DNA of 64,000 nt. It comes from Blasia pusilla (taxonomy: Eukaryota). The DNA lies in assembly GCA_050084515.1 (NCBI GenBank), contig CM114271.1, positions 41,044,001 through 41,108,000 on the forward strand, written 5' to 3'. The notes under the pieces were generated by a model. That model was not told where the DNA came from and did not search any database. It was given only the letters and a program-made list of their open reading frames with translations. Positions 23,466 to 64,000 of the stretch are shown here, one piece after another. Position numbers and translations under genes: made by a program. Numbering within the stretch: the stretch's first letter is position 1; every line of letters begins with the position of its first letter.

Positions 23466-24988
23466 GTAAGGGGGCATTCAAGTAGGAGGGGGGGCCTTAG
23501 GAGAAGGGAACATGGAGGGGGCGTGCATCGCACGGGCCCTAACTAGTAAGAGAATAAAACGGAAACATCGGGAGGAGGACGACCCTTCGTGTTCCGATAA
23601 TATTGGCCAAAGCCGGGTACTGTACACGTCGGCAGAATGGCAACGATCCATAGGCCGGGACGTCGTCCACGTCAGGATCCGGAAACACACCTGGACAGAA
23701 ATAGGGCTGATGCAGTCATCAAGCGGAGGGCTGGGATCCGATCGGACGGTATCGTCCGTCGGGAGGTGCCATCGCTCCTGCCCTGTGCAGCACAGCACGC
23801 TTTGCTTACAGGAGGAGCAATTTCCCTCGTTCAGTGAGTCTCTCGTCCTTTGGTGCTTTTGGGGCCCCTGCGGAACAAAAGCGAAGCAAACCAAACAAGG
23901 AAAGACGCGAATTACAAGGGAACAACAGGAGCGAGCGAGCGATTGGTTGATTCCTCCATCCTCCTGCCTGCCTACGAATTCAATTGTAGGCTGGCTGTGG
24001 GTGGAAGGAAGGAAGGAAAGAAAGAGGAGGGGGCCGGGCCGGGTAGGGGACGGAGTACAAGAAGAGACGGGGGACGAGGCCGACGGGGTCGGTCTGTGAT
24101 GCCGGGAATGATTGTACTGCGGGATGGCAATGCCAAGATGAGTTAGGTGGAGGTGCGAAGGGTTAAGAAGCCTCTTGAAGTCTTTTGGTCGATGATCGGG
24201 TGGAAGAAGGAGGGAGGGAGCTATCTGAGAATGCCGGCAAAGACGGTGAGGAGATGATCGAGTGAGAGCTATGGCAATCCAGGATTTCTAGGTCAGTCGG
24301 AGGAGCGAGGATAGTACTGGGGCCGGTTCCGGGGAAGTGGAACGGGCTAGGGTTCGTTTGCTTCGGGCAAGATTCAGGAGCTTGGGAGCGAGGAGATTTG
24401 GAGGAGGAACTCCGCTCGTTTCCGATCATTGACGGTTGGGGATCTCGGTCCGAAGGCGGAGGCGGAGGCCAGAGTGATTCAGCATGCTTGGATTGGATCC
24501 AGTGCTTCTGAGGTGTGGTTGAAGTGGGGGCTGGGTGGAGGAGGGTTGATTTTCACCCCGCTGGTGTGGCTTAGGGTCTGTTCACCCTGAATGAGGCGCT
24601 GGATTCGGGGGGGTCTTATCGTAATTCGTCCAACGCAAACGTAGAATTTCATGCGTATTCTGTTGACTGGAGCTCCTTCCGTCTGACAATGCCGCGAAGA
24701 CCTCACCTTCGTGTTGTATGAGACCCTTCTTTTCTCCGAATCTGTCCTTTCCATCTGTCGGTCGAGAAGAAAGTTGGAGTAAGAGCAATTGTTTTTTGGA
24801 GTCAGGAATTCATGGATCTTCTCTCGCTTGCTGGGGCGGGAAGACTGCAGACTGTTGTAATTGAGTCTTGCGCCTTGTTATTCGCGTGAATCTTCGTGCA
24901 CCTGCTCTGACAGATCTCTTTCCTTCCAGTTGGGAGGGGAGCATAGGGTCAAAGATTTATGGGCTAGCCATTGGCTCACTGCCCTTTC

Positions 24989-27900: not shown

Positions 27901-29041
27901 TGAACCTTGTGAGTCAAGAGATTCATCTATGGGACATTACTGAGGATGACAAAACAAGTAAACCCTTCAAGTATAAGGGGCACCGCCAAAGTCGTTTTGT
28001 GATTCGCTCTTGCTTTGGCGGGTCTGACCAAGCTTTCATTCTCAGTGGAAGTGAAGATTCTCAGGTGTGCACTTCCCCACCATGTTTATTGCTTATGTAG
28101 ATGTTACAGCTTCACTGTCACAAGTCTCTCAGCGAATCTATAAAATATGAATACGAAAAGATTAGCATGTGTTTGACTTGTGTTCACCTAATGCAGGAAA
28201 ACGGTACTTTCTGAAAATCCTATATATCATTGGGATTCCTGGAGTCTGTTGATGAAATATGACCTGAAATTTTAACTTAGCTTTGGAACAGTCTTACATA
28301 AACTGCTTGCCTAGAGGGACATATAAAGACATAGAAGTGTCACAAATTTGCTGTGCTACTCCCCTCTAAATTTTACTCTGTTCTCATTTGTTGGCAAGTC
28401 ACAAGTCTGGTCACCACAGAAGTATCTTGTATGTTTGCACATTTATGGCTTCACTTGAGAGATGAAATGCTTGTGACCCCTCTTCTTTGAGAAGTAGTGT
28501 CCAGGTCTTAGTCATGCCTTCAGTTGCTTCGATTGGGAAGCTCATACACCCTTACTATCAGCTTGTCACATACTGGGACTTTGTTCTCTGCGTCTCTGTT
28601 TACAAAAGAAAGTACAATTTTAATCTTCTGATAATACTTTGGTTAGGTGTCTGCTGGATTCAAATCTCCAATCAACGAGACATAATTATCTGCGAGGGTG
28701 AACTCAAGGGTTTATGGAAGTGCTGATGTGTGATAATTAGTTTCTCAGAAACTTCTAAAAGGAGTTGTTGAACTGTGCAGGTTTATCTATGGCATAGGGG
28801 TAATGGTGAGCTTTTAGAAAAATTGCCTGGTCACTCGGGGACAGTGAATTGTGTCAGCTGGAATCCAGTCAATCCACACATGTTCGCTTCAGCTAGTGAT
28901 GATCACACTATCCGAATTTGGGGTTTGAACAAGAGTCAGAGTCCTGCTAGAAGCAAGGGTAGCTGTTCTAGTAATGGTGGGATTGACCACCTTGTAAATG
29001 GTGGGACACGTGAGCTAATGGAAAAGCTTAGACCTTTCTAA
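24989..29041 (+). CDS. WDR26: WD repeat-containing protein 26 / GID7-like (LisH-CTLH-WD40; CTLH E3 ligase subunit), ~595 aa
   Basis: Exons 24989-25777, 27096-27197, 27429-28064, 28781-29041, all GT-AG and phase 0. LisH ([28 protein letters not shown]), CTLH ([14 protein letters not shown]), [20 protein letters not shown], and WD repeats ([74 protein letters not shown]). Confidence 0.95.
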
Positions 29042-31379: not shown

Positions 31380-31665
31380 TTGTGGAAGAGGAATGAGATT
31401 ATGAAAATTGCCATTTGGCCATCAAACTTGAAGCATAAAAATAGGTGAGCTGACGTCAACCTTTCCTTTAGTAATTCCTAGTGCATCTTGTTATGGATGA
31501 TTGCCCACAACCCATATTGTGATTGTGGAAGAGGAATGAGATTATGAAAATTGCCATTTGGCCATTAAACTTGAAGCATAAAAATAGGTGAGCTGACATC
31601 AACCTTTCCTTTAGTAATTCCTAGTGCATCTTGTTATGGATGATTACCCACAACCCATATTGTGA
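31380..31665. repeat. Recent tandem duplication, 2 x 143 bp
   Basis: Units start ttgtggaagaggaatgag at 31380 and 31523. Only three differences were seen, all transitions. Confidence 0.95.
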
Positions 31666-36567: not shown

Positions 36568-39195
36568 TTAAGAGTGTTGTTCAAACGTTCGAGTAGGAGT
36601 GCGTGATTCAGAGTATGGAGACAACTCCGATGGATTTTCGACGTAGGAAGTAGGCGCCTCAATATCGTCCTTCGACTTCTCCGCAGATGTGTCATACGCT
36701 GATCTTGATGTATCATCTCCATTATCGTTGCCACTATCAGAGAGTGGCCTGACATCTTCCAGCATCTTGACGACTTGATCCATTGTCGGTCTTTGATCCG
36801 GAACATGAGTTACACACTGCATAGCGACTTGCAGCATTTGCACCATCTCTTCCTCGATGTTTTGATACCTCATCAGCTCAAGGTCGAACACTTCAGCAGT
36901 CCACTCTTCCCGCACCACAGACTGCACCCATCTAGGCAAATCAATGCCTTCGTCATTCAAAGTAGCCTGAGTTGGAGCTTTCCCAGTAAGTAGCTCCAAC
37001 AGAAGCACACCGAAGCTGTAGACATCTGCCTTTGTGGTCACCTTCCGCGTCTCCACGACTTCCGGAGCTCGGTATCCAACAATCCTTGAAGCGGCCGCAG
37101 TCGAACTGAGAAGTTGTGCAAGTCCGAAGTCAGAAACACACGCCTCCAGATCCCTCGTGAGTAGAACATTCGAGGATTTGATATTTCCGTGGGTGAAGTT
37201 ATGCTCGCTGTGAAGGCACGCAAGGCCGCGGGCAGCTCCCGTGGCAATACGGACACGCGTAATCCAGTCCAGCGGCGTGCGCGAACCGCCTTTGGTGCCT
37301 GAGGAGAAACTCAAGGCAGACAACGACAAAACATGATGAGTAAGACCTTCCATGAGCGTTATTCTCCGGGATAGCACATGTCTTACACATGACCAGCTGG
37401 TAGGAAATTCCGAGCCTTACGAGCAAACTCGCATTTCGACCAAGGCCATTTGTGAGACTGCAAGTCTCTCAGACGACCCCAGAAAGGTTCTACGGGCAAA
37501 ATGTCAGGAGGAAGACGGCCGGACTTCCAGCATTACGATGCGGACGGAGCCGGAAATTGAATGTGGCTTCTTAGAAGTAAATGATGCATAAGACAGCAAC
37601 ATTCGCTGCAATGAACGCTGAGAAAGCTCGGCTTCGATTACCCAGATCAAACCGCAATAGTGATGAGACGGCGTCGGGTTAGTGGGAAACCGCAACGCAG
37701 TAAGCAATGCAAAGCAGCGATTGAAGTTCGAGGCTACATTCAGCGCTTTCCAACTGTGGATAGATCATTGCTTGCTCTTCCCAGTGCACATGCAGACAAG
37801 TCCCGCACTGTGGGCAGAGGCAATCGAAATAATGCAAGGAGAACAGTGGACAAGAACTCAAGTAAGAGAAAACGTACCGTGGAGCAGCGATGACAGGCTA
37901 CCAGAGGGCATGTAGTCATATACGAGAAGCTTTTCATCTTTGGAGAAATAGTAGGCCCGGAGGGGTATCAAATTTCGGTGATGCAATCTTCCGATATAAT
38001 CGATTTGCGCTTCGAAATCTTTCTTCGTGGTAGTCACATCCTTCAGGCGTTTCACGGCAACTATGCTTCCGTCTTCAAGCACTGCCTTGTAAGCCGTACC
38101 GACACTGCCCTTGCCCAAAACCTCTGCGGAGGCTCTTAAGAGATCCTCCAAGTCGAATGTGTAACGCTTGCCCTCAAAGAAAACCAACTTACTACGCTCG
38201 GGCTCCTGCATTGAGCTGGAGTACTCATCCTTAGATTCCTCTGTCTTTCCGAGTCCTGCCTCACCTTTGGGGGACTTCGCAGCCTTGCGGCCTTTCCGTC
38301 TGAAGTAGCACAGTATGCAAACGACGGTCAGCAGAAGAAGTAAAGCAGCATCTCCTACGACAATGGCGACAATGGCTCCGGTGCCAAGCTTATTCTTCTT
38401 CTGCTTCCCGGGATCAGGCCCTCTACTGGATGGGCCAGTTTCTCCCTCCGATGGTGCAGGTGCAGGGGGGAGTAAAAGAGTTTCACAGGTTTCGTTTGTC
38501 GGAGGCCCGCAGATGGCCAGGTTTCCTACGAAGCTGCTTGGGGGGAAAGATTGCAGGGATACAGGAATGGGACCGGACAAGTCGTTGTTAGCTACACTGA
38601 ACGAAGTGAGGGAAGGAAGAGTGATGTTGGGAATATCTCCAGACAATCGGTTGTCTTGCAGAAAAATGGTCTTCACGAAACCGAGTCCGCTGAGAGATGG
38701 CGGAATGCTACCGTTGAATCTGTTGTTTGCGAAGTTCACGTGGACGAGGCGGGGCCAAGCTGAAAAATTAGATGGCAAGGGTCCAGTGAACTCGTTGTTT
38801 TGGAAGTAGAGACTCTTCACGTGGAGGAGATTGGGCAAGTCGTAAGGAAGGCTCCCGAACAACCTGTTAGAGTGCAAACTGATTACACGAATTTGGTCAA
38901 GCTGTCCCAATGTATCAGGAGGAATCGTGCCGTTTAACACCTGTCCTGGGAGACGAAGTTCCCACACCCGACTTAGACTGTCACAAGCCACCCCTTGCCA
39001 GGAACAACCGGAGGTGTTAGCTGCTCCCCAGTCGGACAATCTGTTCAGCGGATCAACAGCTTCTTTGAAGGCGAGGAGCGCTTGCGTGTCCGAGCTCGCG
39101 TCTCCTCCATGCGAGGGAACTACCACGCCGAGGGAGAGGAACAGTACCATTGCCATCCAAACTCGCCACTCTGAACGCTTCCTGAACTTCCACAT
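36568..39195 (-). CDS. LRR receptor-like kinase, LRR-III subfamily (At2g26730/RLK902-like, probably catalytically atypical), ~682 aa
   Basis: Exons 37878-39195 and 36568-37298 (phase-1 GT-AG intron at LLH|G). Signal peptide, CSWQGVAC cap, ~5 LRRs, TM helix ([23 protein letters not shown]), [37 protein letters not shown], catalytic loop [35 protein letters not shown]. Confidence 0.95.
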
Positions 39196-40529
39196 TCTGA
39201 TTTATGAACAATCAATCAATCAGAGTAGGCAGAAAATCCTGCCAGATAGAAGCTCGAGGATACCAACGACCCGCGAATGACTACATGCACATCATCCCTA
39301 GCTCGGCGAGCCGTCAACACCTCGCCGAACAAATCACAACTCCCGTGTCAGCTGCCGATCAGCCTTTCTCCGCGAGAGCGCTTCGGAAGGGTATATCACG
39401 ACGACCTACGAGGGACGAGCACACAAAGGTGCGGCTGAGTGAGCGTCAACGCACTGGTTGTGCCCTTACAGGTTGACTCGTACCGGCATTGTCAAGCACC
39501 GAATACTTATAAACCCGTGCATTCAGAGCTTCGAAAATTCGATCCTGTCATCCGCATTTCCAACAGGATGCGAGACCTCTCCCCAAACCATCGGAGCAGA
39601 CGTAGTAGTGCTCCGCTCAGCACAAACACCCTGCCCGTTCAATCTATCTCTTAGTCCGAGCGCACGCGATCGAAGTGGGAATCGTATATCGCAGTCTTAA
39701 GCTACAAAGACGATCCGGCATGATCTCGCTCTCTCCACTTTGCCTCTATCTTAGCGGGGAGGCGCTCTGTGATCTATGATCTGGGAGGGCCGAGACTCTC
39801 CCAAGGACGGAAGGCGAGGAGTGCCTCACTGGACGCAGGAAACCGTATGAAAGGATGGATGGACGGACACTAGCCAGGTGCCGGTGACTGTGCATGGGCG
39901 GGCCCGTCGGTCTATCCGTCCGACACTCGATCACCTCGCCGCGTCGCCGTCAAACCTGACCCGGCGCTCCTCCCTTGGACCGATGGTCCGCCTTTTCTGC
40001 ACCTGAACACACCGGCTCTGCGCTTAGCGCCCGACATAGCGAACCCGGCGCCGGTCCTAGAACTCACCGGGATCTCTCTCCACTACGGGTTGGCGCGATC
40101 GCATGACGAGACCCTTTACTGGTCGTGAATTGAGAACGGCTAGAGGATGCGGAAAGTTTGAAACTCTGTCGGTACGCGGAACGAAACGAGATCCATCCGT
40201 TGATTCCGTTCGGGGCCGTAGGAGCGGAGCGGAGCGGGGCAGGGCAGGCTGGACTGACGTACGCGCGCGGCTGGCTCTTACAGCGAGGATTTTTTCCACG
40301 GCGGAGGCCAAGCGGGAAAGCGAATGAGTATCAACAGTGGACTACACTCCCCACTGCTAAGCACGCAATTAAAACCTGATTAACGGTATCTAAATCTACG
40401 AGGCGCATACGTTCGTTAGGATTGTCGCCATCCTTTGGACCCACCAATAATTGGACTGATTAGTGACTGAGTTAACATAGCGATCTACAGTACTAGACTA
40501 AACGGGCGATTTTTTCTTCCTTTCTTCAT

Positions 40530-51365: not shown

Positions 51366-51407
51366 CATCATCCCACAAGGGATACAATTCTAAACATTAC
51401 TAGAAAG

Positions 51408-51725
51408 CATGGTTGCACGAAAACGGACAAGTCCTTCCTTAGGACGGACATGGACTAACAAGCCTGGACACGAGTTCCAACAAGTAGGACCCACACTTTT
51501 AGTCCATGATGGAAGGCGAGGCAAGGATGAGAGGAGCAACGAGGGATGAGGGAGTGGAGGTGGAGGGAGGAAGAAATTGGGGAGTATGGAACATGAAGGC
51601 AAGTAAGGGGAATGAGAAAGAATGGAAAGGTGGGGCCCATATGGACAAGTCCTTCCATATGACGAACATAAGTCCATGGACATGGATATGTCCACGGACA
51701 GGGACTTTGTCCACATGCAATCTTG
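51408..51725. mobile_element. hAT-type MITE
   Basis: Ends catggttgcac...atgcaatcttg; 8-bp TSD ctagaaag / ctagagag (7/8); repeated catggac/ggacaagtcc subterminal motifs. Confidence 0.82.
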
Positions 51726-52399
51726 CTAGAGAGCGGTACAATAAAAAAATTACCTCAAAAGAGATGTAATTCACCACCTAAGTACATTGAGTGATTGTCT
51801 TAAATTTGGAGGTCATGCTATTTTGCAAATAGACGTCGCTCCCAACATACATCAACTTTCATGCACACAATTCTAAGATCCATCTAACCATGAATCCTAA
51901 TATATCTTCAAATGAACGACTGTACAACCCTAATATGAAATATGACATTGATGAAATCTGCAAAAAGCTATATCTCATCTAGACATCCACTCAATGATAC
52001 ACACTATAGGAGTGCGTAGTAAGAGATAGTCTCTAAAAAACTCTCAATATGTGTCATCTTCAATCAATCCCAACCCACTCGTCAAAAGAGAATCCATGCT
52101 TAATTAATAGATGCAAGCGACACCATATTACAGATCCCAATATGGGTCTTATATAAGGAAGATAAGCTCTAAAAAAGCTTCATCTGAGGTGTATTCCCTT
52201 GGACACCTCTATGGATGACCTGTATACATAGGTAATCTCCTCTCAAAAGATCACCAACAACTTGGAGAACACAAGGTTCTAACTCCCTAACAACTATATA
52301 TATGGTCCTCTCATAAGACCAACTACTACTCAAATCCTAACTAACCCCATGGTCCTAAATATCAAAGGGTATGCTATGACTATTAAGGGGGTATGGACT

Positions 52400-54090
52400 A
52401 AGAAGTTACATAGTATCCACAATTTCCATAGGTGCACATGAAAGAGTTTGCAATAGGCATTTACTTGCTTGCGTCAATTGATTAGTATCACTCAAGGGAT
52501 GAGAGAGGTCCATGACATCTAGGTATGGTATGGGATTCTAGGATAGGAGATGCGGAGATGAGTAGAGGATGTGACACTTCTCCTTTGCACCTTACCTCCA
52601 TCAAGAGATATGTTTGAGTTGGATGAGTGCATTGAGTGAAATGTGGATCAAGAGAGTGTGGCAACTTTGAGCTTTTAAAGAGATGTTACAAGAGTGTTTG
52701 CACCATTAGTGCAATAGAGTACAACATCGCGAAGAAGAGTACAACGATGCGATCGCTAGGGGGTTACTATGAGCATGTATCACAAAGATCCATATCATCT
52801 TATGTGGGTCAACACCAACCAAGACTTATTTGTTGGGTGTGTGCTACATGGAGCTTATCTTTAGGAAGATTGGATTCGTCAGGGTAGTGGATGCGAGTCC
52901 CAACCTTTGGGAGTAGATGAGGCCCAATTAGAATTATTTCAATGTGATTTTTTACAAAAAAATATGGTCATACATAAGCTATTTGTTTTATCCTACACCT
53001 TGAGCTACATGCAAATTGAGTCTCGGAGAGATCCCCAAAGCATGTTGGAGGCCCACATAGGGCCAAAGGTTGTTGGTGGAGGTAGAAGTCAAATGCCTAA
53101 ACAAGTAAATGGAAACTATGGGCTTGAGGCTAGGATGGATGTCTAGATAGATTTAGTTATAACAATGGCATTGAGGTTACCAGATGTTGGGTCTATGGCA
53201 TTGAACTCACATGGAGCAATTAGGGATATGGAGGATGTGGATTGGATGTGCGGGGCTGCATAGATGGAGGAAACTGTGGTTGTTGCAAGTAGAGTTGGAT
53301 TTATAGAGAGGGGAAGCCATGAAAATTACTAGGCTTTCTCAATCATTTATGTTGTCAGAGACGATAAGGACCCCATCAATGGATCTAGATAAGAGTTCTT
53401 AAGACCAAAAAAATACAATTTATCATCTAATACGAGGTCACGATGAGGCTAAGATCAAGACATCTATTTTATGAGTCTTTGGTATAAGCTAAGGCAAAAG
53501 ACTCTTGTAGAGTCCTACAACATCTTGGTTGGAAAATCAGTGTTGTACATGATGGGATTTTTTTAGGACTATTGGGAGGATAAATTGTCCTTAAGCAAGG
53601 ATAGTAGTCTAGTGATCAACAACTTAGCTCGTTGCTAGTGCAATTCACTAGTGGAGTGATCGTGCGATGACCAAGAGATCCTTATTGAAGCACATTTCTT
53701 TGCTAGGGGCATAGGAGTTAGATTGGATGGATACCATTGATTCCATAATTGCACATTGGCAACATCATGGCTATTTGAGTGCGAGACAAGGAGGTGATTT
53801 GGATGACCATTGATCTAGGTTATTTTGGCACATGGCAAGGATCTAGCTTGTGGCATTTGCACAAGCTCTAGTCTCGTTCTCCAACATACTTACACTATGG
53901 AGAATGTACCAAATTTGGGTGATTTCCATTCACGAGTGGTGATGAGTCTATGTCAAGTTGCTACCTAGATCAAGTAGGAAATGTTTTTGGATACAATGAG
54001 CGTGTGTTCAAGAGTACATTGTCCACCCCTTTGGTTGACAAACCTGATGCCCTCAAAGGTTTTAAGGACGGTGGTCACACAATGTGGGTA
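52400..54090 (+). mobile_element. Heavily decayed Gypsy copy B (gag/PR plus DNMT remnant)
   Basis: VESYNILVGKSVLYMMGF..DYWED (~53505-53580) matches copy C downstream of the protease site. TIDL / RLFW / SRSPTY..MENVPNLGDFHSRVV (ENV at 53900) / FLDTMSVCSRVHCPPLWLTNL match DNMT motifs IV-VIII of copies C and D. The 5' boundary is approximate. Confidence 0.72.
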
Positions 54091-54671
54091 TCCAAGCGTG
54101 CATAGACATAAGTTCATGGACATGGACCTCATATGTGTGCAACCTTGCCTCTTTTTTAAGTGATAGAATGGTGTAGTTTTGTCATGCGTCTACTATCTTG
54201 AACGTCAATCCCATGCGGTGTGGAAGCTTGCGTTCAATAGGACACACTCACCTTAGTCTTGATTTGTGTCCATCAGCCTTATATCTCCCCGAGTTTTCAA
54301 CTTGAGCCTATTAACAAGTGAAGTAGAACTTATACGTATGAATACCTTAAAACATTTCGTTGAGATCATCCCTAAGGCACTATATATAGACAAGTTGGAC
54401 TTTTTAAAAATTCACTCAAGATCCATCTAGTTCTGAAGGATATAGGGTGGAGCTTGAGGAGAGGTTTGATATATGTAGGGAGGCTTGAGGGCATCCTAGA
54501 TTTAGCTTGACAATGTTATGCATTATTGAGAGTACCTTTTTTCTTGTGAACAATTTTTACTTAAGACCAACATCATGTTTAGTGCTAATGTGAACTATGC
54601 TGCATATGTGTACGATATATCAAGTTTTATAATATGCCATCTAATGTTTTAACCTTGCACCTACCAATCTT

Positions 54672-55395
54672 TGTCACGACTTTTAGGATAGATTGCTGAG
54701 ATCTAGTAGAGCGCCTCGGAGATATTGGTGGATAGCCTAAGGAGGTTGTTGTGCGCATACACATCACTACAAAACATAGATTGTTGTCACCGAACATACA
54801 CACAAACATGCTTAATCCTATGCTAACTCATGGCATCCAAACAACGAGACGAGAAGTACCAAAAATATCTCAAATAAAATCAATGAAATTTCTCTCAACA
54901 ACTCACATCAAACTCTCCATGGTGTGCACTCTCTCTCTCATGTCAAACCAAACCCATTCTCCAAATGAGAGGCTTGGGCACATAGAAGGCAAGGAGGACA
55001 ATATCTCCGCCGCCTCATGTCAAGAGGTTCAACAAAAGAGAATAAGCTCTCAAGCTCTCTCTGTTGGAGGTATACCCCCTTCCCTCTCCCAAGCTCTCTC
55101 CTCAGTAACCTATGGTTGCACGTCATCTCCTTGGCTCTTGACTTGTTGTAGCGGCTCAAGGACCACTTTCAAAAATGGAAAGTCAACTATACTTCAAATG
55201 GAACTTACCCAAAATAGTAAGTTGCTCTATATGGATCCAAATGAGTCGAAACGAAGGGGAAACCTGGTCTCTCAGGTTACCCATAGCCTTAGCGGGTCAT
55301 CCTTGACCTTGTCACGACTTTTAGGATAGATTAGTGAGATCTAGTGGAGCGCCTTCGGAGATACTTAAGGACAGCCTTATGAGGTCAAGGACGAA
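54672..55395. mobile_element. Rearranged LTR cluster: LTR start (+), inverted remainder of LTR (-), second LTR start (+)
   Basis: 54672-54746 tgtcacgactttt...aggt; 54747-55309 reverse-oriented LTR tgttgtgcgc...ttgacct; 55310 onward tgtcacgactttt...gaggtcaagg. All are homologous to the full LTRs at 58827-59464 and 61545-62186. Confidence 0.85.
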
Positions 55396-58300
55396 GAGGA
55401 AGAGCCTTAGAAGGACGAGGAACTCTAGAGAGTTCAACCCGTTTACATCATGGAACGGCATGTTTTTGCATTGAGAGGGGGCGCCCATGGACGATTACCA
55501 TGAGTTCTCCCACAGTTATGCCCAAGAGATTGAGGCATAGCGACTCTACTATGACCCACACTATGTGTCATGGACGAAGCCGTTCCCAGATGAGGAGGAG
55601 GAGGAGGAGGAGTCAAGAGAGGCTACTTCCTCTTCCACTAGTGATGTTTTAGGAGGGATAACTTGCATTGGAGCAGATGCACCGTCCAGTTGGGTTCGTC
55701 CCAAGTTCAACCCCGTGGTTGAGTTCTTTGTTGAGTTGCGGACGAGCTACCAAGGGGTATGGACGGAGAAGTTGCGGAGCATCCATGACTTCCAGAGTGC
55801 CTGGGTGAGAGTTTTCGTGAGGCCTATACTCGCTTGCTCCGGTTGATCAGGAAACAGACCAGGCTTCCTCAGTCTTTCACGTTGTTCGAGACAATGAGGA
55901 CCCCATCGATGGGTCCGGATCAGAGTTCCCGTAGAGTTGATGATGTTGGTGTGCATGCACGGAGGACAATGGGAGAAGCGAGTGCGACGACTCTTGTTGC
56001 TGATGCTCAGGAAGAGCATGTGTCGAGCACGTTGTTGGGGGCGGCCACTATTGTATACCGCGCTCTTTTCTTTTTTTCTTCTGATGTTATGATGTTGGGA
56101 GATACACCCGACGAGGTTTTTTGGCTGGCCACTATGCTATATGAGCGTGGAGTTGGTATTCGAGCTTCATACTCAAGAGGGATTATAGAGGAGGTGATGG
56201 ACTTGCCCTTGGAGCCTATGCTCGGTCTGTCCACGTCAGATTCATGGTAGGCTGCGGCTGTTAGGATGGCGGAGATGCTCGCTAGACGCGTGCTAGAGCG
56301 TGCCATGGCTGCTCCTGGTGCTGTATTACAGGATAACCAGGGAGAGGTCTCATAGTTGGTGAGTCAAGCATATATAATTTTTAGTCCGCAGAGTGTTCCG
56401 TTGGATTTGGGAGCGCAACCCTTGATATTGGATAAAGCGACATTCAGAGGATTGGGCTTGACGAGAGCCGTTGTGGAGCGTTGTCTGTTCAAGATACAGA
56501 CATCCTTGGGTGGAGCAAGTACCATATAGTATATCACCGGACAGAAGGTCGTGGTGAGGATTCGCTCGGGTTATCCTACAGATGAGTCCGTGGTGCGAGC
56601 CAAGGCTATAATGATCGATGTAGAGTCTTACGACGTCTTGGTTGATGGAGCAGTGTTGTACTAGATGGGGTTTTCCCCAGATTAATAGGAGGATTCAATA
56701 TCCTATAGAACACGATGACATACCAGTGATGGACGACTTTGTTCATTATCCGTTTGATTCACAGATGAAGTGATTGAGCGATGGCCAAGAGAGATGGCGA
56801 CCTTAACAGCATTTAGCAGTGCCATCACTTGGCCTAGTGATTTGATTGAGGGACATGTCAATGGAGGGGATACTCTCGTTCTTGACATTTATATGGAGAG
56901 GAGTGTCATGGTAGCCGCATCAGTCCGTGGAGGAGAGGTGCCACTATGGGGCTCGAGTGAGGAGCTCCGATGTTTATCCGATGAGCACGTGCAGACGCCA
57001 TGGAGTGAGGCGTTTGCACGAGAGCGTGACGGGTTAGAGGAACCCGAGGTAGCCATGATTGCTACTATGGACACCACCGTGATTGTGTGGTGCATCCCAC
57101 AGGAGGGTATCCGTGAGCTGGATCTCTTGGGAGGGATCGACACTGGTTTAGCTACTGTTTTCCAGCAGGAGTGTGCGTGCATCAGTACCTATACATTGAG
57201 ATTGATGATGTTGCGAGGCGCGCTTCACTCCATCATGTGGCGCAATTACGCTTCCAATTTCCCGACTTGTTGTATGCGTCCTCCATGCAGGGGTACCAGA
57301 GTTCCCTACCGAGGGACATTTTATTGTTGGGGGCGCAGGACTTGGAGTAGGTAGGGACCATTGACTTGGTCATTGCTGGTTGGCCGTGTCAGAATCAGTC
57401 GAGTACTGGATGAGATAGTGGATTAGCAGACTCTCGGTCCAAGTTGTTTTGGGAGATGATGCGGATCTTGCGACATTTACAAGAGCATCAATCTTGTTCT
57501 CCAACATACATTTTGGAGAATGTGCCGATTTTGGGCAATTCGAGGTCCCGCGTGGTGACGAGTGCACATCAAGTGCGCGCATGGATTGGCCCCACAGGTA
57601 TTGTGAGATGCGGCGAGTGTAGGTTCACGAGCACATCGCCCGTATCTTTGATGGACCAACTTGGTACCACATGTTGCGGAGGGCATATACGAGAGTGGAG
57701 CGCCCCTCCCATTTGTTGGTGGATTCTATTCTGGATCCAGGTTGTCAATCAAAGGCAGTGAGGCACAATGATCGATGGCCATTGACTATGGTCAATAGGA
57801 TTGGCATGCCACGAGCAGCCTTTCCCACATTGGTGAGTTTTCCCGCTTCTTATGCATTCAAGGAGGTCGGGCCTGTCTTGGTTTGGGATAACCATGTACA
57901 TTGGTTGGTGGAGCCCAACGCCGATGAGCGAGAGCAAGCAATGGGATTCCCCACAAGAGTGACGGAAGTACCTTCATTATCAGAAACATCACAACGTCAC
58001 GTCTTGGGTAAGGCAATGGACTTGAACTGCTTCACATGGAATTTTAGCTTAGGAGTAGCTGAGCAACGTCATTTGAGATTATAACATATTACAATAGTTG
58101 CGTTGGTCAGCCCCATGCCTACCAAGACGGTTGAGGCAGTGGCTGGGGGCAAGACCCGAGGAGATTGATACACCAAGGGTGATCAAGAGAGACACCCTTG
58201 GACTTCTTGGGATGTTTTGCACGTATGTCGGGAGATGATAGCCACAACATCGAGCGTGATTTTGGGTACTACACGTGAAGATCAGAGTTTGCAGTTGGCT

Positions 58301-58826
58301 GCAAGGGTGCAATTGAGTTATATTATCCGAGACGGGGTTGCACTATAGCAACCACCGACACCCGCGCCAGAGAGTTCTACCGTAGTCACAATGGAGACTT
58401 GGGAGCCATACATGGGCCCTAAGTTGAGTGGAGGAGAGCGGTGCCGGATACACCAGTTCCTTAGGAGTTATAGGAGTTGTTTTTAATTTAGCATGCATGA
58501 TTTGGGTACGCTGAAGGGTCCAGGGATCCGCATAGAATAGTCGAGTGACACGCCGATCTTCCGAAAACCCTACAGGTATAGGGACATGGAGAGGGCTCTG
58601 ATTCAGAGTAGGAGTCAAGACATGGTTGGAGGAGGACTAGTGGAGATGTTGCATGGAGAGTATGCATCTGCCACTGTCATGCCTGCCAAGAAGGATATGC
58701 ATGGCAACTGGATGGATAGGCGGATGTGTGGAGATTACCGACCTATCAATCGACATACGAAGTCCGATAGGTATGCCATGCCCACCCTTGAGGAGATCTT
58801 TGATGCTATTGGGCATGCAAAGGTCT
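55310..58826 (+). mobile_element. Gypsy copy C: truncated 5' LTR, gag, protease, DNMT, 5' part of RT; broken by insertion of copy D
   Basis: Gag-like GESFREAYTRLLRLI (~55805-55850); protease LDLGAQPLIL at 56401; DNMT ~57100-58050; RT start PIFRKPYRY...EYASATVMPAKKD...RRMCGDYRPINRHTKSDRYAMPTLEEIFDAIGHAKV ends abruptly at the LTR at 58827. Frameshifts and stops throughout. Confidence 0.9.
57100..58050 (+). pseudogene. C5 cytosine DNA methyltransferase domain (DNMT3-like) within Gypsy pol, copy C
   Basis: Motifs in canonical order: I LDLLGGIDTGL (57118), II YLYIEID, III LPRDI, IV IDLVIAGWPCQ (PCQ 57384-57392), V GLADSRSKLF, VI YILENV (57516-57524), VIII DAASVGSRAHRPYL*WTNL, IX EPNADEREQAMGFP, X RHVLGKAMD. 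Interrupted by a few frameshifts and stops. Confidence 0.9.
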
Positions 58827-59464
58827 TATCGTGCGCATACACATTGCTACACAACATACATCGTTGTCATGAACACACACACAAACACACACGATCCCAT
58901 GCTCACTCATGGCATCCATACATAGAAGCAAGAAGTACCAAAATATCTCCAATAAAATAAGATCCAATCTCTCTCTACACTATCTCACATCATAGCTCTA
59001 AAAGGTGTGCACTCTCTCTCATGTCAAACCAAACCCACTCTCCTAATGAGAGGCTTGGGTTACACTCACAAGGCAAGGGACCATAGCTTTGCCGCCTTAT
59101 GCCAAGAAGTTAGACAAAGAGAGAATGAGCTCTCAAGGTCTCTGTCTTGGAGATATACCCCCTTCCCTCTCCCAAGCCCTCTCGACGGTAACCTATGCTC
59201 GCAGGTCACCTCCTTGGCTCTTGACCAGCTGTAGCGGGTAAAGGACCACTTCCCAAAGTGGAAAGTCAACTATCCCCAATATGGATACTTACCAAAAATA
59301 GTAATATATATATATGGCTCCAAATGAGCCGAAACGAAGGGAAAACCTGCTCTATCAGGTTTTTCGGGGCCTCAACAGGTCATCCTCAACCTCTTGGACC
59401 TATCCTCCACTACTTGTACATACGCTTTGCTAGATCCCACCGATCTATCCTAACAGTCGTGACA
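58827..59464 (-). mobile_element. 3' LTR of Gypsy copy D (~638 bp)
   Basis: On the minus strand it runs tgtcacgac...gcgcacgata. It is homologous end to end with the solo LTR 61545-62186 and lies downstream of the PHD-ending pol of copy D. Confidence 0.85.
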
Positions 59465-59780
59465 ACTGTTGTGCGCATACATATCGCTACACAACATACA
59501 TCGTTGTCATCGAACACACACACAAACACACAAGATCCCATGCTAACTCATGGCATCCATACATAGAGGCAAGAAGTACCAAAATATCTCCAATCGCCCT
59601 CCTAGCTGGTGGTTAGGTCCCCCTAACTCCAAATAGCCATCTATCCCTACCTACCACGACATACATCTCTAAGACGCTAAGACCAGAAAGGCCAGGTGCT
59701 CATGTGGCCCCATCATTAGTCGCCTTCATATCATCCATGTCACAGAAAAAGTCGAAATCAAAACCTACCTAGTATCTCCT

Positions 59781-59925
59781 CTATGTACATCTGGGACACA
59801 TCCATCGTCCCCGAGGAACCCTAGTGAGAGGTGGCGTCAAACATGCCATATGCCAACCTCTCGAACATCCATCACATACTAGCATCGTGGCTGCACCACG
59901 AGCAGAACCACACAACAAACAACGC
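59781..59925 (-). other. PHD finger (C4HC3) at the integrase C-terminus of copy D
   Basis: CLLC...MLVCDGCSRGWHMACLTPPLTRVPRGRWMCPRC, with all eight zinc ligands present, followed by a stop. Confidence 0.92.
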
Positions 59926-61544
59926 AAGCCTACAAGAACTAATGTGGAGCTCGGATCTACTGTACCATCAATGTTAGGAAGGTGGCATGGCGCACAATTA
60001 CGTACATGGTCCTTCCATACCATACCATCGCGTCCCTCCAACAAGAGAACACCGGATGGCTAAACGTCATGCACTCTTATGATAGTGCACCCTCCAATCA
60101 CATCCAACGTCGTCAATTCCGTCTGCTGCAAGTACACATAATCTCCTTGATGAAACCCTCCGGATAGTCACATACGTCAACGTATCTCGATGCTGTGCAA
60201 TCGCCAAGTTCTCGAACGCCATGGGCATCACTCTACGAAACAACTCAGCCATGTGAGAACATGCTTGCATCCATACATCTGGGTCATCAAGGTCCAACAC
60301 CTCACCAACATCTCGACGAATGGCCGCAGGTAAATCTGGCTCTCGACCATAAAGTAGCAAGTACGGTGAAAAAGACGCTAAGAATGCCTGCATGCTGAAT
60401 CTGTATCCCATAGCCAACCACGGAAACTCGAGGTGCCAATCTCCTAGGTGACCTCTCTGCAAGCCATACTTGCGTTAACCCCTCTTCACCGTCTACACAA
60501 CTCTCTCCGCTAATCCATCCGCCTCGGGATGATCTCGCGAAGTCGTGCGGTGGTCGATCAGCACCTGATCACACAAGGCCTGGAACTCATCGCGAAACTC
60601 GGTATCCTGGTCTGTCAACACCTCAGCCGGTACGCCATAATGACTCATCACTATGTCAAGGAAGGCATAAGCTACTCCCTCACTCGCTTTGTCAAGAAAT
60701 GCAACCAACTCGATCCACTTTGGAAAGTGATCAACCATCACCAACACATAACGATTGTGACGCTCCGTCAAAGGCAAAGGTCTTGCAAAATCCAAACTCC
60801 ATCCATACCCTAAGCCCATGATTGGTAATGGATACAACTGTGGAGTCGGAGAATTGAACGATGCTCGGACCCGATCACACACCATGCACCTGGCAACAAA
60901 CTGCTGAACATCAGTCTGCATGCCTCGCCTCCAATATTGAATCTAGAGCTAGTTGTACGTCCGCTTCATCTCAAAGTGATCCAACTCCTCGTGGGCATGC
61001 TCCACTAGTTGTTCTCTCTCTGAAGGATACAGCACTACGTGTTCTCTATCATCCTCCCCAACACTCTAAACATATGTCCCCTCCCAACGGAATTGTCTGG
61101 CCTGTTGTAGGATCCGATCCCGCTCTCTAGCACCCACGGTGCTCGCAACGCTGCCAGTTCAAAAGTACTCCAAGACTACTCCATCATCATGAATATCTCG
61201 GCCACCTGCCATCTCCTCACAGGCCTTGGGATCCAAGGACTCTCCACTAGACCTCGCCATCGAAGTCTCCACACTCTGGCTCTCCATAGCCAACATGCCT
61301 AAATAGGCTGACGCGTGCCATCCTGGCTTTGACTCCTCATCACTCTCTCCATGCCATCGAGCTCAAGTCGTATCTCGCTGACTCGGGCATGGGTTATGAC
61401 TCAACCCATCTGCATCCTAGTTGAGCGTCATAAGTCTATGAACCACATGAAAATCATACTCCTGCAACAATAGAGCCCATCTCGCAAGCTTCCTTGTAAG
61501 CTTGTCATACTCCATCAACCACTTCAATGGTTGATGATCAATGA

Positions 61545-62186
61545 TGTCACGTCTTTTAGGATAGATCGGTGAGATCTAGTAGAGCGCCTTTGTGAGTAGT
61601 GGAGGACACGCTCAATAGGTCGAGGATGAAGTGCTGAGGCTCCGGGAAACCTGAGAGAGCACGTTTCCCCTTCGTTTCGGCTCATTTGGAGCCATATTGA
61701 GGAACTTACTATTTTAGGCAAGTACCATCTTGAGTATATGATCGACTTTATATTTTTGGTAAGTATCCCTTGACCTCCTACATCAGGTCAAGAGCCAAGA
61801 AGGTGACTTGGGAGAATAGGTTACCATGCACAGAGCTTAGGAGAGGGGAGGTGTATACCTCAAGGAGAGAGAGCTTTAGAGCTCATTCTCTCTTTGTTGA
61901 ACCTCTTGGCATGAGGCGGCGGAGCTATGGTCCCTTGCCTTGTGAGTGTAACCCAAGCCTCTCATTAGGAGAGTAGGTTTGGTTTGACATGAGAGAGAGT
62001 GGATACCTTTGAGAGCTATGGTGTGAGATGGTGTAGAGAGAGATTGGATCTTACTTTAATTGGAGATATTTTAGTACTTCTTGTCTCGTTTTTTGGATGC
62101 CATGAGTTAACATGGGATCATGCGTGCTTGTGTGTGTGTTCGGTGACAACGATGTATGTTGTGTAGCGATGTGTATACGTACGACA
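61545..62186 (+). mobile_element. Solo LTR (642 bp) of the same family, inserted in the RNase H of copy D, with 4-bp TSD
   Basis: tgtcac...acgaca flanked by atga on both sides. Removing the LTR plus one atga restores the reading GTPFTIIIDHQPLKW on the minus strand. Confidence 0.92.
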
Positions 62187-63299
62187 ATGATGATGGTAAA
62201 GGGGGTGCCAAATAAGTAACACTTGAAATGCGTGACAGCCCACACTACAGCCAAGCACTCATCCCAATGCCACTCGTGATCCACCTTGGTCAGCAGGGTT
62301 AGCGACTTTGCAATCAAACAGAATCCCTTGACGTACCGCCGATAGAAGTTTGCCAATCCCATGAATGCGCGAACACGGTTCGCATCTGTAGGGCGTGGAA
62401 TGCGTGAGATAACCTCTACCTTCGTTTGCTAAACACCAAGGCCCCTTGGGTATATCGTATGACCCAAGTACTCAATCTGGTCGTAGAAGAACTTGCACTT
62501 GCTTGGATGTAGCTTCAACCCATGTAATTGCAATTGTCGAAACACCTCCTCTAGATGTTGCTCATGCTCCTAAACCGTGGCGCTAAAGACTACAATGTCA
62601 TCAATATAACACTTAGCAAAATCCAGACCAGCCAAGATCCTATCCATGACCCTCTGAAATTCAGCCGAGGCGTTCTTTAACCAAAATGGTAAGAACCGCC
62701 ACTGGTACAAACAATCCATCCCGTGAGGATTGATGCCCCAAAATGCCGTCTTCTTCGTGTCCTCCAATCTGGTAGGCAGTTGATGGTATCCGCCTCGCAA
62801 ATCCAATGAACTGAAGACCTTTGCGTGACCAATCACATCAAAGATCTCCTTAGGGGTGGGCATGGCATACCTATCGGAGGAACTGATGTATCCGGTGCCG
62901 CTCTCCTCCTGTCAACTTAGGGCCCATATCTGGCTCCCAAGTCTCCATCGTGACTACGGTAGGACTCTCTGGTGCGGGTATCGGTGGTTGATATGGTACA
63001 ACCCCGTCTCGAACAACAATACTGGTTGCTCTCCTACAGCCAACTGCAAACTCTGATCTCCTCCACGTGTAGTACCCTGAATCACGCTCGATGCTGTGGC
63101 TATCATCTCCTAGCGTACCTGCAAAACATCCCAAGAAGTCCAAGGGTGTCTCTTCCGATCTCCCATGGTGTGTAGATCTCCTCGGGTCTCGCCCCCAACC
63201 ACTACCTCTACCGTCTTTGTAGGCATGGGGCTCACCAACGCAACCGCTGTGATCTGTCGCGATCTCATATGGCGCTGCTCAACCACTCCTAAGCTGAGG

Positions 63300-64000
63300 A
63301 TCCATGTCAAGCAGTTCAGGTCCATCGCCTGACCCAAGACATGGCGTCATGATGCCTCTGACACTGACGGTACTGCCGTCACTCTTATGGGAAATCCCAT
63401 CGCTCGCTCTCTCTTGTCGGCATTGGGCTCCACCAACCACTGAACCTAGTCATCCCCAACCAAGCCAAGACCGGCCTCCTTGTATGCATAGGAAGCGGGA
63501 AAACTCACAAACGTGGGCAAGGTTGCCCGCGGCCTGCCTACCTTGTTGACCATAGTCAACGGTGGTCGATCATCGTGCCTCACTGCCTGTGATCGACAAT
63601 CAGGATCTAGAATGGAATCCACTAACAAATGGGAGGGGCACTCCACTCTCACATACGCCATTGGTAACACCGCATGGGGCACCAAGTTGGTTCACCATAG
63701 ACACGGGCGATGGGCTCTAGAACCTACACTCGCCGCATCCAAGAACACTGCTCGGCCAACCCAGGCACGCACCTGATGAGCACTCGTCACCACCCGTGAC
63801 CTCAAGTCTCCTAAGATTAGCACATTCTCCAGAATGTAAGATGGAGAACGAGACTGGTGCTCCTGCAACTGCCGTAAGACCCTCAACATCTCCCAAAACA
63901 ACCTGGACCGAGTGTCAGCTAGCCCATTGCCTCGTCCAACACTCGATTGGCCCTGACATGGTCAACCGGAGATGACCAAATCAATGGTCCTTACCCGCTC
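63300..64000 (-). pseudogene. DNMT3-like methyltransferase domain (motifs IV-X) in copy D
   Basis: IDLVISG*PCQGQSSVGRGNGLADTRSRLFWEM...YILENV...FLDAASVGSRAHRPCLW*TNL...EPNADKRERAMGFPI...RHVLGQAMD, collinear with copy C. Confidence 0.9.

Follow-up and report, generated by a model that had tools for sequence, protein, structure and literature searches.

Remnants of a Ty3/Gypsy retrotransposon family with a predicted DNMT3-type cytosine methyltransferase in the liverwort Blasia pusilla

Why would a retrotransposon of a land plant encode a cytosine methyltransferase, is that enzyme a component of the element or a stray host gene, and what might it do? These questions are raised by a 64,000-nucleotide stretch of the Blasia pusilla genome (assembly GCA_050084515.1, contig CM114271.1, positions 41,044,001 to 41,108,000), hereafter the window. 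The first-pass annotation had described a Gypsy retrotransposon in a land plant, and the host leucine-rich repeat (LRR) kinase agrees with such an origin: its identity is 74% with Marchantia paleacea and 65-66% with Riccia and M. polymorpha. We consider it very probable that the window holds three nested dead copies of one liverwort Ty3/Gypsy family, whose full form reads A-gag-PR-DNMT3-like-leaky stop-RT-RNase H-integrase-PHD-B-A-B; that the methyltransferase has long belonged to this family under selection and is not a passenger; that the family is high-copy and transcribed; and that it is, by analogy, the land-plant counterpart of the algal element KnitGypsy-Dnmt3. Identity and mechanism taken together, this explanation as a whole seems likely.

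Copy A (55.3-58.8 kb, + strand) and copy D (58.8-64.0 kb, - strand) are nested in one another and belong to one Ty3/Gypsy family; Pfam and tblastn searches recovered the Ty3/Gypsy order of PR, RT, RNase H and DDE integrase. Copy A consists of the following parts.

54671-55363, no strand assigned: rearranged sequence derived from terminal repeats, upstream of copy A (blastn and alignment)
55337-56382, + strand: gag (tblastn, 37-39% identity to Marchantia P0005), the N-terminal part at 55337-55848 and the rest from 55852 onward
56383-56700, + strand: aspartic protease, LDLGAQPL at 56401-56424, ESYDVLVDGAVLY (tblastn to relatives)
57110-58060 (about), + strand: DNMT3-like C5 methyltransferase domain (PF00145, 47.8 bits; tblastn, 54-76% identity to P0005; frame map)
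58061-58345, + strand: weakly conserved tail of the first ORF
58346-58354, + strand: in-frame stop TAG CAA CCA, where the family has its conserved ORF1/ORF2 stop
58349-58825, + strand: start of ORF2 and N-terminal part of RT (tblastn, 65% identity to P0008)

In the rearranged region, the segment R1 (54751-55309) lies between two 55-bp copies (54671-54724 and 55309-55363) of an inverted repeat end, and upstream of 55418 the sequence differs from that of 1150 DNA reads. The gag of copy A is without the CCHC zinc-knuckle part that Marchantia P0005 has in residues 183-468, and 1054 reads part from the window sequence after 55797. The protease site was found where it had been reported, at 56401. 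Relatives carry LLDSGAQP at this position, and DSG has thus decayed to DLG in copy A. A Pfam search of the protease and gag pieces of copy A gave no match, and both are known by tblastn to relatives only; the relatives' protease does match Asp_protease_2. Between protease and RT lies the segment of about 950 bp that had been read as a methyltransferase. Its motifs I to X follow in unpermuted order, with motif I (LDLLGGIDTGL) at about 57116, the catalytic PCQ at 57384-57392, ENV at 57516-57524, DAASVGSRAHRP at about 57607, and EPNADEREQAMGF and RHVLGKAMD at about 57910-58020. Its reading frame changes three times (about 57170, 57597 and 57670) and meets at least four stops. At 58826 the RT is broken by a terminus of copy D; 990 reads run on as RT sequence beyond 58827.

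Copy D shows the other half of the element, and the same domain precedes its RT, as had been noted at the outset. Its parts, and those of a third remnant, are listed below.

58826-59620, - strand: 3' end of copy D, inserted in the RT of copy A, with a polypurine-like tract (59595-59620), B1 (59467-59594) and A2+B2 (58826-59466)
59787-59921, - strand: C-terminal PHD finger (PF00628, 46.5 bits, E 3.8e-12)
60181-61544, - strand: end of RNase H, connection and integrase, with zinc H2C2 and rve core at 60493-60942 (rve, 40.3 bits; tblastn to P0042, P0008 and P0221)
61545-62187, + strand: solo A+B terminal-repeat unit inside the RNase H of copy D, in the orientation opposite to D, with TG...CA ends and a 4-bp duplication, TCAT
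62188-63109, - strand: RT and start of RNase H (RVT_1, 90.4 bits)
63110-64000, - strand: DNMT3-like domain, beginning a little before motif IV and reaching motif X (PF00145, 37.3 bits; 58.6% identity to P0005)
52385-54133, + strand: third copy of the family, reduced to a heavily deleted remnant (tblastn with Marchantia P0005 and P0008, 39-59% identity)
within it, + strand: gag 52385-52690, PR 53501-53581, and DNMT 53673-53843 and 53888-54133 (E 1e-18 for the DNMT pieces)

The window ends within the methyltransferase domain of copy D, upstream of motif IV; PCQ and ENV are retained. About 300 bp of the RT N-terminus are deleted, a single nucleotide is missing at 63025, the family stop reads TAT, and eight in-frame stops occur in 604 codons. 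Copy D might be taken for one unbroken DNMT-RT frame; we rejected this, since its continuity is a coincidence of the 1-nt deletion, a 4-nt gap and the deletion of about 300 bp, and the argument that both domains share a frame is therefore drawn from copy A and from the relatives L001 and L003. The window copies are dead, and no product is made from them. The solo A+B unit is bypassed in 577 DNA reads from other copies, which join 61541 to 62188.

The terminal repeats are not two identical LTRs. They are split as A...B-A-B in L040, L076, L080 and at the 3' end of copy D, where B1 and B2 are 95% identical (blastn, alignment); the termini and polypurine tract of these three relatives are homologous to that end. 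Termini of the TG...CA type with a short target duplication are found in the solo unit and in L076 and L080 (CATA, these two being possibly one locus seen twice), and three of four duplicated bases match in L040. The 640-bp repeat R had been considered as an unrelated element, which we rejected because relatives share its termini, polypurine tract and B-A-B layout.

Is the methyltransferase an integral part of this family? Among the 29 metagenome loci of at least 8 kb, 13 have the order gag-PR-DNMT-RT-RH-INT-PHD and none has another, and Marchantia P0008 follows it with DNMT at 460-529, RVT_1 at 833-919 and RNase H at 974-1098. Between copies A and D the domain has a dN/dS of 0.19 (CI 0.12-0.27, 234 codons), far from the value near 1 by which the first-pass annotation would have dismissed it, and the intact relatives give 0.15 (L001 vs L002) and 0.13 (L001 vs L003); the tail of the first ORF stands at 0.66 (CI 0.36-1.40). 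The methyltransferase domain is under purifying selection. DNA read depth is about 1180-1890 over DNMT, 1650-1920 over gag and PR, and 0.2-4 over the flank. A host DNMT3 gene or pseudogene that merely adjoins one retrotransposon copy, or was passively captured by it, would account for the similarity to DNMT3 and for nothing beyond. Such a passenger, absent from most family members, is refuted by the three intron-free window copies, a position shared among relatives of four genera and 29 mapped metagenome loci, depth like that of gag and PR, and dN/dS of 0.13-0.19, and we leave it next to no probability.

The family is high-copy and transcribed in Blasia pusilla. In three RNA-seq runs the cover is strand-biased, with the same polarity relative to copies A and D, a polarity that is sense only on the assumption of standard dUTP libraries. 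In each run just 6-8 RNA reads match the window copies at 99% or above, so the expression belongs to other family copies. The window copies have A or T where most family reads have G or C at 587 places, and the reverse at 191. Such an excess would be expected of methylated copies that decay as silenced elements do, and the enzyme would thus give no lasting protection.

What kind of enzyme is it? Raw ORF pieces gave little: copy A scored 18.4 bits against PF00145, below the cut-off of 22 bits, copy D 30.3 bits, and two further raw DNMT pieces had no PF00145 match. With in-frame stops read through as X, the profile check proposed earlier came out clearly, at 47.8 bits for copy A (57174-57599, E 1.8e-12) and 37.3 bits for copy D, where the translation of 62189-64000 also matched RVT_1. 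ORF1 of L001 scores 51.1 bits, and the protein atlas label for the domain is the generic DNA_methylase. An intact ORF, which the window copies lack, is present in L001, L003 and Marchantia P0005. The earlier reading as DNMT3-like rather than DRM, MET1 or CMT holds as well. Among the 57 PDB matches of the family profile, the first 29 are all DNMT3A, DNMT3B or DNMT3C (E 2.6e-21 to 2.2e-15), followed by the permuted DRM (2.8e-10) and M.HhaI (5.3e-10), and no DNMT1-type chain appears at E 0.01 or better. DRM is matched by its C-terminal part only, against the N-terminus of the profile, whereas the DNMT3A alignment is collinear. An AF2 model of the L001 domain (pLDDT 90.4) matches the fold of the DNA-bound DNMT3 catalytic domain across about 330 columns, and the best 50 Foldseek matches listed are all DNMT3, with a target-normalised TM of about 0.8 for catalytic-domain chains.

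The animal DNMT3A/3B/3C catalytic domains are thus the best matches in both sequence and fold, with motifs I-X collinear. The family domain shares about 21-23% identity with them and differs by about 60-80 added residues in its C-terminal half (query-normalised TM about 0.64, target-normalised about 0.82). It also stands without PWWP or ADD reader domains, for upstream of the methyltransferase ORF1 holds gag and PR only. Sequence and fold together predict a DNMT3-type C5 cytosine methyltransferase. It could be argued that the domain no longer methylates DNA and has become an RNA m5C enzyme or a nucleic-acid-binding or oligomerisation module. In the 2018 report by de Mendoza et al., the KnitGypsy-Dnmt3 domain produced no methylation in yeast, a result its authors call inconclusive, and RNA methylation is raised for the LINE type (PMC5890265); the motif IV proline, moreover, is present in 71% of type I sequences (methyltransferase between PR and RT) and mostly replaced by E in type II (between RNase H and integrase). 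Against this, the full catalytic set is kept across 58 type I and 119 type II rows (catalytic Cys 100%, ENV glutamate 100%, motif VIII arginines 93-100%, and motif I), and neither this set nor a fold like that of DNA-bound DNMT3 would be needed by a pure binding module. We regard loss of DNA methylation as improbable and continue with a DNA methyltransferase.

How would the enzyme be made? The first-pass annotation supposed that it was packaged with RT after cleavage from one polyprotein, and here the sequence speaks otherwise. Between DNMT and RT, 51 of 57 anchored rows have an in-frame TAG or TAA followed by CAR-YY-N, the stop of copy A at 58346 being one form of it. The following bases are CAA CCC in 43 of the 51, and strict CAR-YYA in 7 of the 51. 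The 57 rows are for the most part closely related, with about six distinct contexts, and therefore represent few independent lineages. In L001 and L003 the ORFs on both sides of the stop are intact and in one frame, and some type I relatives, e.g., P0042, have an uninterrupted DNMT-RT ORF. In this lineage, a conserved in-frame stop divides gag-PR-DNMT from RT-RNaseH-INT-PHD, and because of this separation the enzyme would be made at the level of Gag, not with RT. UAG-CAR-YYA is the leaky stop of tobamoviruses, and gammaretroviruses express gag and pol by stop-codon readthrough. The family resembles both in having a single in-frame stop between an abundant upstream product and the polymerase, and the six bases after the stop of copy A fit the tobamovirus CAR-YYA. 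It differs from gammaretroviruses, in which the stop follows gag, as here it is placed after PR and DNMT, and readthrough is a prediction in this family.

A mechanism for active members can be tentatively proposed, with a chance that we place a little below even. Active members would translate gag-PR-DNMT in abundance, and a minority of the products would be extended by stop-codon readthrough into RT-RH-INT-PHD. The gag-linked precursor would carry the enzyme into the particle, where the protease would free it. Cytosines in the element's new cDNA, or in the freshly integrated element, may then be methylated by the enzyme. The benefit we infer is that a new copy would bear host-like methylation from the outset. 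Since the enzyme lies upstream of the leaky stop, it would be in large excess over RT and integrase, and in an abundant, transcribed family such a Gag-level dose would also suit a free nuclear enzyme. It might therefore act in trans on host chromatin or other elements, feeding maintenance, damping competitors or tuning silencing, instead of on its own cDNA. However, fusion to gag-PR favours incorporation into the particle, ORF1 has no nuclear or chromatin-reading domain, and the PHD finger is the last domain of ORF2. We judge action in trans unlikely, if somewhat less so than the loss of DNA methylation, and favour methylation of the element's own DNA.

Relatives with the same order, annotated as hypothetical proteins, occur in Marchantia polymorpha, Calypogeia, Sphagnum and Closterium, the last being the source of the two members that could be named among 20 cluster representatives. 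Type II relatives, with the order RT-RNase H-DNMT-integrase-PHD, make up 92 of 178 typed proteins, one of them named, from Monoraphidium neglectum. Outside type I, these are the nearest DNMT relatives (35-42% identity, E to 1e-65); they share with it the integrase and the C-terminal PHD finger, but place the methyltransferase between RNase H and integrase instead of between PR and RT. In a midpoint-rooted DNMT tree, 58 type I or untyped rows stand apart from 119 type II or untyped rows (SH-aLRT 83 and 79). A wider reading, more doubtful than the mechanism itself, is that a large, hitherto unrecognised green-lineage Gypsy group, built either as PR-DNMT-RT or as RT-RH-DNMT-INT and in both cases with a terminal PHD finger, extends into land plants, and that its bryophyte branch translates the enzyme at Gag level, from an ORF that a leaky stop terminates, and methylates its own new DNA with it. 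If true, this would be a self-marking strategy that can be tested in Marchantia.

The role of retrotransposon-encoded cytosine methyltransferases has been open since 2018. The sole streptophyte example showed no activity in yeast and comes from a host that is difficult to work with experimentally. In Marchantia polymorpha there are copies whose gag-PR-DNMT protein is annotated without interruption, and the question can thus be taken up in a land plant whose genetics and methylome resources are well developed. With a conserved stop separating DNMT from RT, a different enzyme dose is to be expected, and the combination of split repeats with a DDE integrase is an unusual replication layout worth study. 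Moreover, several family ORFs appear in public records as "DNA (cytosine-5-)-methyltransferase" or as hypothetical proteins, a naming by which tallies of host methyltransferases can be misled; on the wider reading, such ORFs inflate the apparent number of DNMTs in bryophyte annotations.

The idea of a land-plant DNMT retrotransposon, with which the first-pass annotation began, is new in its host range; the kind of element was already described as KnitGypsy-Dnmt3 (de Mendoza et al. 2018, PMC5890265). The novelty thus lies in the land-plant host range and in the details, the principle being known. No land-plant report of such elements was found in the literature, where subscription papers, figures or supplements could contain one. 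Among known systems, SymbioDIRS-Dnmt3 of Symbiodinium likewise has a DNMT3-type domain in a retrotransposon Pol and split direct repeats, and was shown in that report to methylate CG de novo in yeast; it differs as a tyrosine-recombinase DIRS element without DDE integrase in a dinoflagellate host, where the report treats it as an independent acquisition (PMC5890265).

Might the bryophyte family, too, have gained its domain independently, from a bryophyte host gene and unrelated to KnitGypsy-Dnmt3? Bryophytes reportedly keep host DNMT3 genes, and searches with the family domain returned no Klebsormidium protein among their named matches. Set against this are the type I members in Closterium, a charophyte, the tree grouping given above, and the unusual A...B-A-B layout, which is the one reported for KnitGypsy-Dnmt3. 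An independent gain is therefore rather improbable, and a land-plant counterpart of KnitGypsy-Dnmt3 is the reading we prefer. As far as its published description goes, KnitGypsy-Dnmt3 of Klebsormidium nitens is a Gypsy element whose polyprotein includes a DNMT3-related domain, intronless and unpermuted; it has a Ka/Ks below 0.2 and, although its domain set is that of Gypsy, DIRS-like repeats (A - coding - B - A - B) (PMC5890265). The Blasia pusilla family resembles it in the DNMT3-type domain within a Gypsy polyprotein, the DIRS-like layout, a similarly low ratio and a streptophyte host. The comparison was made with the published description, and the putative kinship is accordingly drawn from shared architecture and repeat layout. 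The two differ in that Klebsormidium is an alga, whereas the family described here inhabits a land plant, a liverwort, and has relatives in mosses.

The first-pass annotation had read an unpermuted cytosine methyltransferase (DNMT) between the protease (PR) and the reverse transcriptase (RT) of a Gypsy retrotransposon, and also before RT in a second copy. This reading proved largely right, and the finding is real. In copy A, the protease site LDLGAQPL lies at 56401-56424, and about 430 bp past it a segment of ~950 bp encodes a C5 methyltransferase in three frames and in normal motif order. Motif I (LDLLGGIDTGL) is followed by VHQYLYIEIDD, IDLVIAGWPCQ (PCQ at 57384-57392) and ILENVP (ENV at 57516-57524), then by DAASVGSRAHRP, EPNADEREQAMGF and RHVLGKAMD. 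When raw ORF pieces were compared with Pfam, two of the four DNMT pieces had no match and the others scored 18.4 bits (under the cut-off) and 30.3 bits. With in-frame stops read as X, the proposed PF00145 match was obtained for copy A at 57174-57599 (47.8 bits, E 1.8e-12) and for copy D at 62189-64000 on the minus strand (37.3 bits), where RVT_1 also matched (90.4 bits). A C-terminal PHD finger (PF00628, 46.5 bits) follows the integrase (INT) in copy D. The decayed gag and PR pieces of the window copies gave no Pfam match, and their identity was assigned via relatives.

Family sequences in the window
52385-54133, third remnant, much more deleted, with gag, PR and DNMT pieces
54751-55309, repeat R (640 bp)
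55.3-58.8 kb, plus strand, copy A
58.8-64.0 kb, minus strand, copy D
58826-59466, repeat R
59467-59594, part of repeat R
61545-62187, repeat R as a solo A+B unit in opposite orientation, with TG...CA ends and a TCAT duplication

The domain had been called DNMT3-like rather than a permuted DRM or a MET1/CMT, and DNMT3 indeed ranks first in both profile and Foldseek searches. P0005, a Marchantia relative of 1278 aa, matched 27 PDB sequences, 25 of them DNMT3A/B/C (best 1.7e-8), in an alignment that keeps motifs I to VIII collinear and has a further segment for motifs IX-X. Searched with a 20-row profile of the family, the PDB yielded 57 matches, of which the best 29 were all DNMT3 (2.6e-21 to 2.2e-15), followed by tobacco DRM (2.8e-10, in permuted register), M.HhaI (5.3e-10), M.HaeIII, DRM2 and DNMT2; no DNMT1-type chain was among the 57. 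The AlphaFold2 model of the domain from metagenome locus L001 had a mean pLDDT of 90.4, and among the matches listed (to rank 50) Foldseek gave DNMT3 chains only, with target-normalised TM of 0.78-0.83 for catalytic-domain chains at 20-23% identity.

Among 5045 longer candidate proteins, the copy D domain had 26 matches (15 in Marchantia polymorpha, 2 in Sphagnum, 1 in Calypogeia fissa), the best at 61-65% identity. P0005 runs from a gag with CCHC knuckles through an LLDSGAQP protease to the methyltransferase, and a second Marchantia protein, P0008, carries DNMT at 460-529, RVT_1 at 833-919 and RNase H (RH) at 974-1098. An exhaustive HMMER search returned 1149 representatives at E <=0.001, 438 at 1e-10 and 50 at 1e-30, many of them 1000-3400 aa long with the domain mid-protein; another search, word-based and using the intact domain from Marchantia, found 64 matches. 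The charophyte Closterium was the source of two representatives and the chlorophyte Monoraphidium of one partial match.

Eight domain probes on 222 fetched relatives revealed two architectures: type I, (gag-)PR-DNMT-RT-RH-INT(-PHD), and type II, RT-RH-DNMT-INT-PHD. There were 178 proteins with 230 or more residues of the domain (46 type I, 92 type II, 40 untyped); neither type shows variation in the catalytic Cys or in the E of ENV. A maximum likelihood domain tree (quick search, 179 rows, midpoint root) split, with moderate support, into a group of 58 rows that are type I or untyped and include copy D (SH-aLRT 83) and a group of 119 rows that are type II or untyped (SH-aLRT 79), with two long-branched type I rows outside both groups. 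Marchantia, Calypogeia, Sphagnum and Closterium have type I, and Monoraphidium type II. On the tree path to P0005, the domains of the Sphagnum proteins P0021 and P0022 lie at 0.31-0.34 and copy D at 0.55, its own decayed end branch making up 0.31 of that; either transfer among bryophytes or old paralogous lineages could explain why Sphagnum is closer to Marchantia than copy D is. A partial integrase-PHD relative filed in a Spirochaetia metagenome bin, P0222, is probably a mis-binned eukaryotic contig. Near the PHD finger, reads switch to other sequence at 59948, 60050 and 60160 (~1000 from DNA, 60-100 per run from RNA), and this piece (59948-60160) alone appears to be common to other elements or transcripts.

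The methyltransferase domain belongs to the element and is under selection. Its absence from most family members had been named as a test; its read depth about equals that of gag/PR, and the domain is therefore about as common as both. In copy-equivalents the family numbers in the hundreds to thousands, given an uncertain single-copy level.

DNA read depth (raw whole-genome run, 1966 million letters, reads at least 80% alike)
Flank: 0.2-0.9, and ~4
gag/PR: ~1650-1920
DNMT, copy A: ~1180-1260
DNMT, copy D: ~1375-1890
RT and integrase: ~2800-3400

The dN/dS between copies, another check proposed at the outset, was 0.19 for the domain, not about 1.

dN/dS between family members (bootstrap CI; L001, L002 and L003 are better preserved than A and D)
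A vs D, DNMT domain, 234 codons: 0.19 (dN 0.119, dS 0.636; CI 0.12-0.27)
A vs D, tail of ORF1 (gag-PR-DNMT), 85 codons: 0.66 (CI 0.36-1.40)
A vs D, RT start, 37 codons: 0.40 (CI 0.07-1.5)
L001 vs L002: DNMT 0.15 (dS 0.25, 341 codons); PR 0.13
L001 vs L003: DNMT 0.13; PR 0.09, RT-RH 0.04, INT 0.03 (dS near saturation)

Comparing window 57345-58461 with 64000-62878, dS between A and D is 0.20-0.22 in the ORF1 tail and RT start and about 3 times that in DNMT (0.64); the two copies may descend from recombinant lineages.

A metagenome scan matched 207 stretches, of which 103 encode relatives and 80 were kept as loci; long open frames are kept only in L001 and L003. In both, gag-PR-DNMT and RT-RH-INT-PHD (1369 and 1047 aa in L001) share one frame with a single TAG between them. 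Walking upstream from an RT N-terminal anchor, which matched in 60 sources (57 rows usable), we found the first stop at the same aligned position, followed by CAR-YY-N, in 51 of 57 rows. The stop was TAG in 37 and TAA in 14, and the next six bases were CAACCC (43), CAACCA (3), CAGTTA (2), CAATCA (2) or CAACCT (1). Because most of these rows are closely related, the separate lineages come down to about six, counted by distinct sequence context. At this position copy A reads TAG CAA CCA (58346-58354), in frame with the sequence on either side, and copy D reads TAT. Many annotated relatives stop just past the domain (23 gag-PR-DNMT, 15 PR-DNMT), and in P0008 and P0022 the tail between is absent, as if an intron had been predicted across the stop; some type I relatives, such as P0042, have a single uninterrupted ORF. 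The context matches the leaky-stop context of tobamoviruses. Readthrough here is putative, and such a stop would place the enzyme in the Gag-level product.

R is the family's terminal repeat. Of 29 loci mapped, 8 show repeat pairs: L040, L076 and L080 carry an A repeat (323-344 bp) before gag and again after the PHD finger, the downstream A standing between two B repeats of 115 bp (A...B-A-B); L006, L013 and L064 show the A pair only, and L035 and L060 the B pair only. A polypurine-like tract precedes B1, the family ends are TGTCAYGAC...CGCACRACA, and a CATA duplication occurs at L076 and L080, which may be a single locus counted twice. Both the ends and the tract recur in the window repeat. 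Copy D terminates on the minus strand with tract, B1, A2 and B2 at 59620-58826 (B1/B2 95% identical), and its end at 58826 places its insertion in the RT of copy A. At 54671-55363, a terminal-repeat body has, on either side of it, a copy of its inverted end (55 bp each, 93% alike); the length of the unit is that of one repeat (638 bp), and the arrangement looks like a local inversion inside a tandem.

Both copies are dead and are fossils of the family. Copy A changes frame at ~57170, 57597 and 57670, has several stops inside the domain, lacks the zinc-knuckle part of gag found in P0005, and shows the protease DSG decayed to DLG. In copy D, 8 of 604 codons are in-frame stops, one nucleotide is deleted at 63025 and the RT N-terminus has lost ~300 bp; the window end truncates this copy upstream of motif IV. 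Among positions at which the window disagrees with at least 30% of family DNA reads, 587 carry A/T in the window and G/C in the reads and 191 the reverse, an asymmetry that fits C-to-T decay of these copies. Furthermore, the insertion at 61545-62187 is missing from 577 reads, and RT continues beyond 58827 in 990, so both breaks are private to the window copies. A further decayed Gypsy remnant at 20369-22323 (plus strand) keeps pieces of PR, RNase H and integrase that are related to this group; it lacks RT, and no piece of DNMT was seen in it.

Three raw RNA-seq runs cover both copies and are strongly biased to one strand, which has the same orientation relative to either element; depths on the two strands are 14-128 vs 0.2-13 for copy A and, outside the solo-repeat insertion, 34-238 vs 0.6-17 for copy D's internal region. 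With libraries of the usual type, this polarity would be sense. Nearly all reads are less than 95% alike and therefore derive from other family members. A short unrelated high-copy repeat at 51402-51868 (DNA depth ~520 vs ~1 adjacent) has RNA reads too, and short tandem duplications unrelated to the element (77-98% identity) lie at 9139-9581, 10195-10466 and 31380-31665.

Two intron-containing host genes were found, a LisH/CTLH-like WD40-repeat gene at 24968-28100 (plus strand) and, at 36568-39201 (minus strand), an LRR receptor-like kinase resembling 'inactive receptor kinase At2g26730'. The kinase exon at 37858-39201 (minus strand) is closest to liverworts, with 74% identity to Marchantia paleacea, 66% to Riccia fluitans, 65% to M. 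polymorpha and R. sorocarpa and 57-58% to Calypogeia fissa, and lower values for vascular plants. This places the window in a Marchantia-like liverwort outside the named matches; the 'land plant' host assumed earlier is therefore correct.

As far as the accessible text of de Mendoza et al. (2018, PMC5890265) goes, DNMT-bearing retrotransposons are described only in Symbiodinium and Klebsormidium, and no activity was found there for the Klebsormidium domain in yeast. In their accessible portions, a 2025 paper (PMC12344493) and a 2026 preprint (10.64898/2026.05.21.726589) cite this report alone for streptophytes. No land-plant report of such elements was found in the openly available article text that the searches covered. 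The element is a land-plant case of an already known kind, and any role of the enzyme within it is something we can only infer. Added here are the two architectures, the PHD finger and the conserved stop, together with the split repeats and DDE integrase, the abundance and transcription of the family, and better-preserved Marchantia relatives. The closest structures to the family domain are those of DNMT3A/B/C in the PDB, with motif order collinear in both, and the A...B-A-B layout is the same as that given, in the accessible text of de Mendoza et al., for the Klebsormidium element KnitGypsy-Dnmt3.
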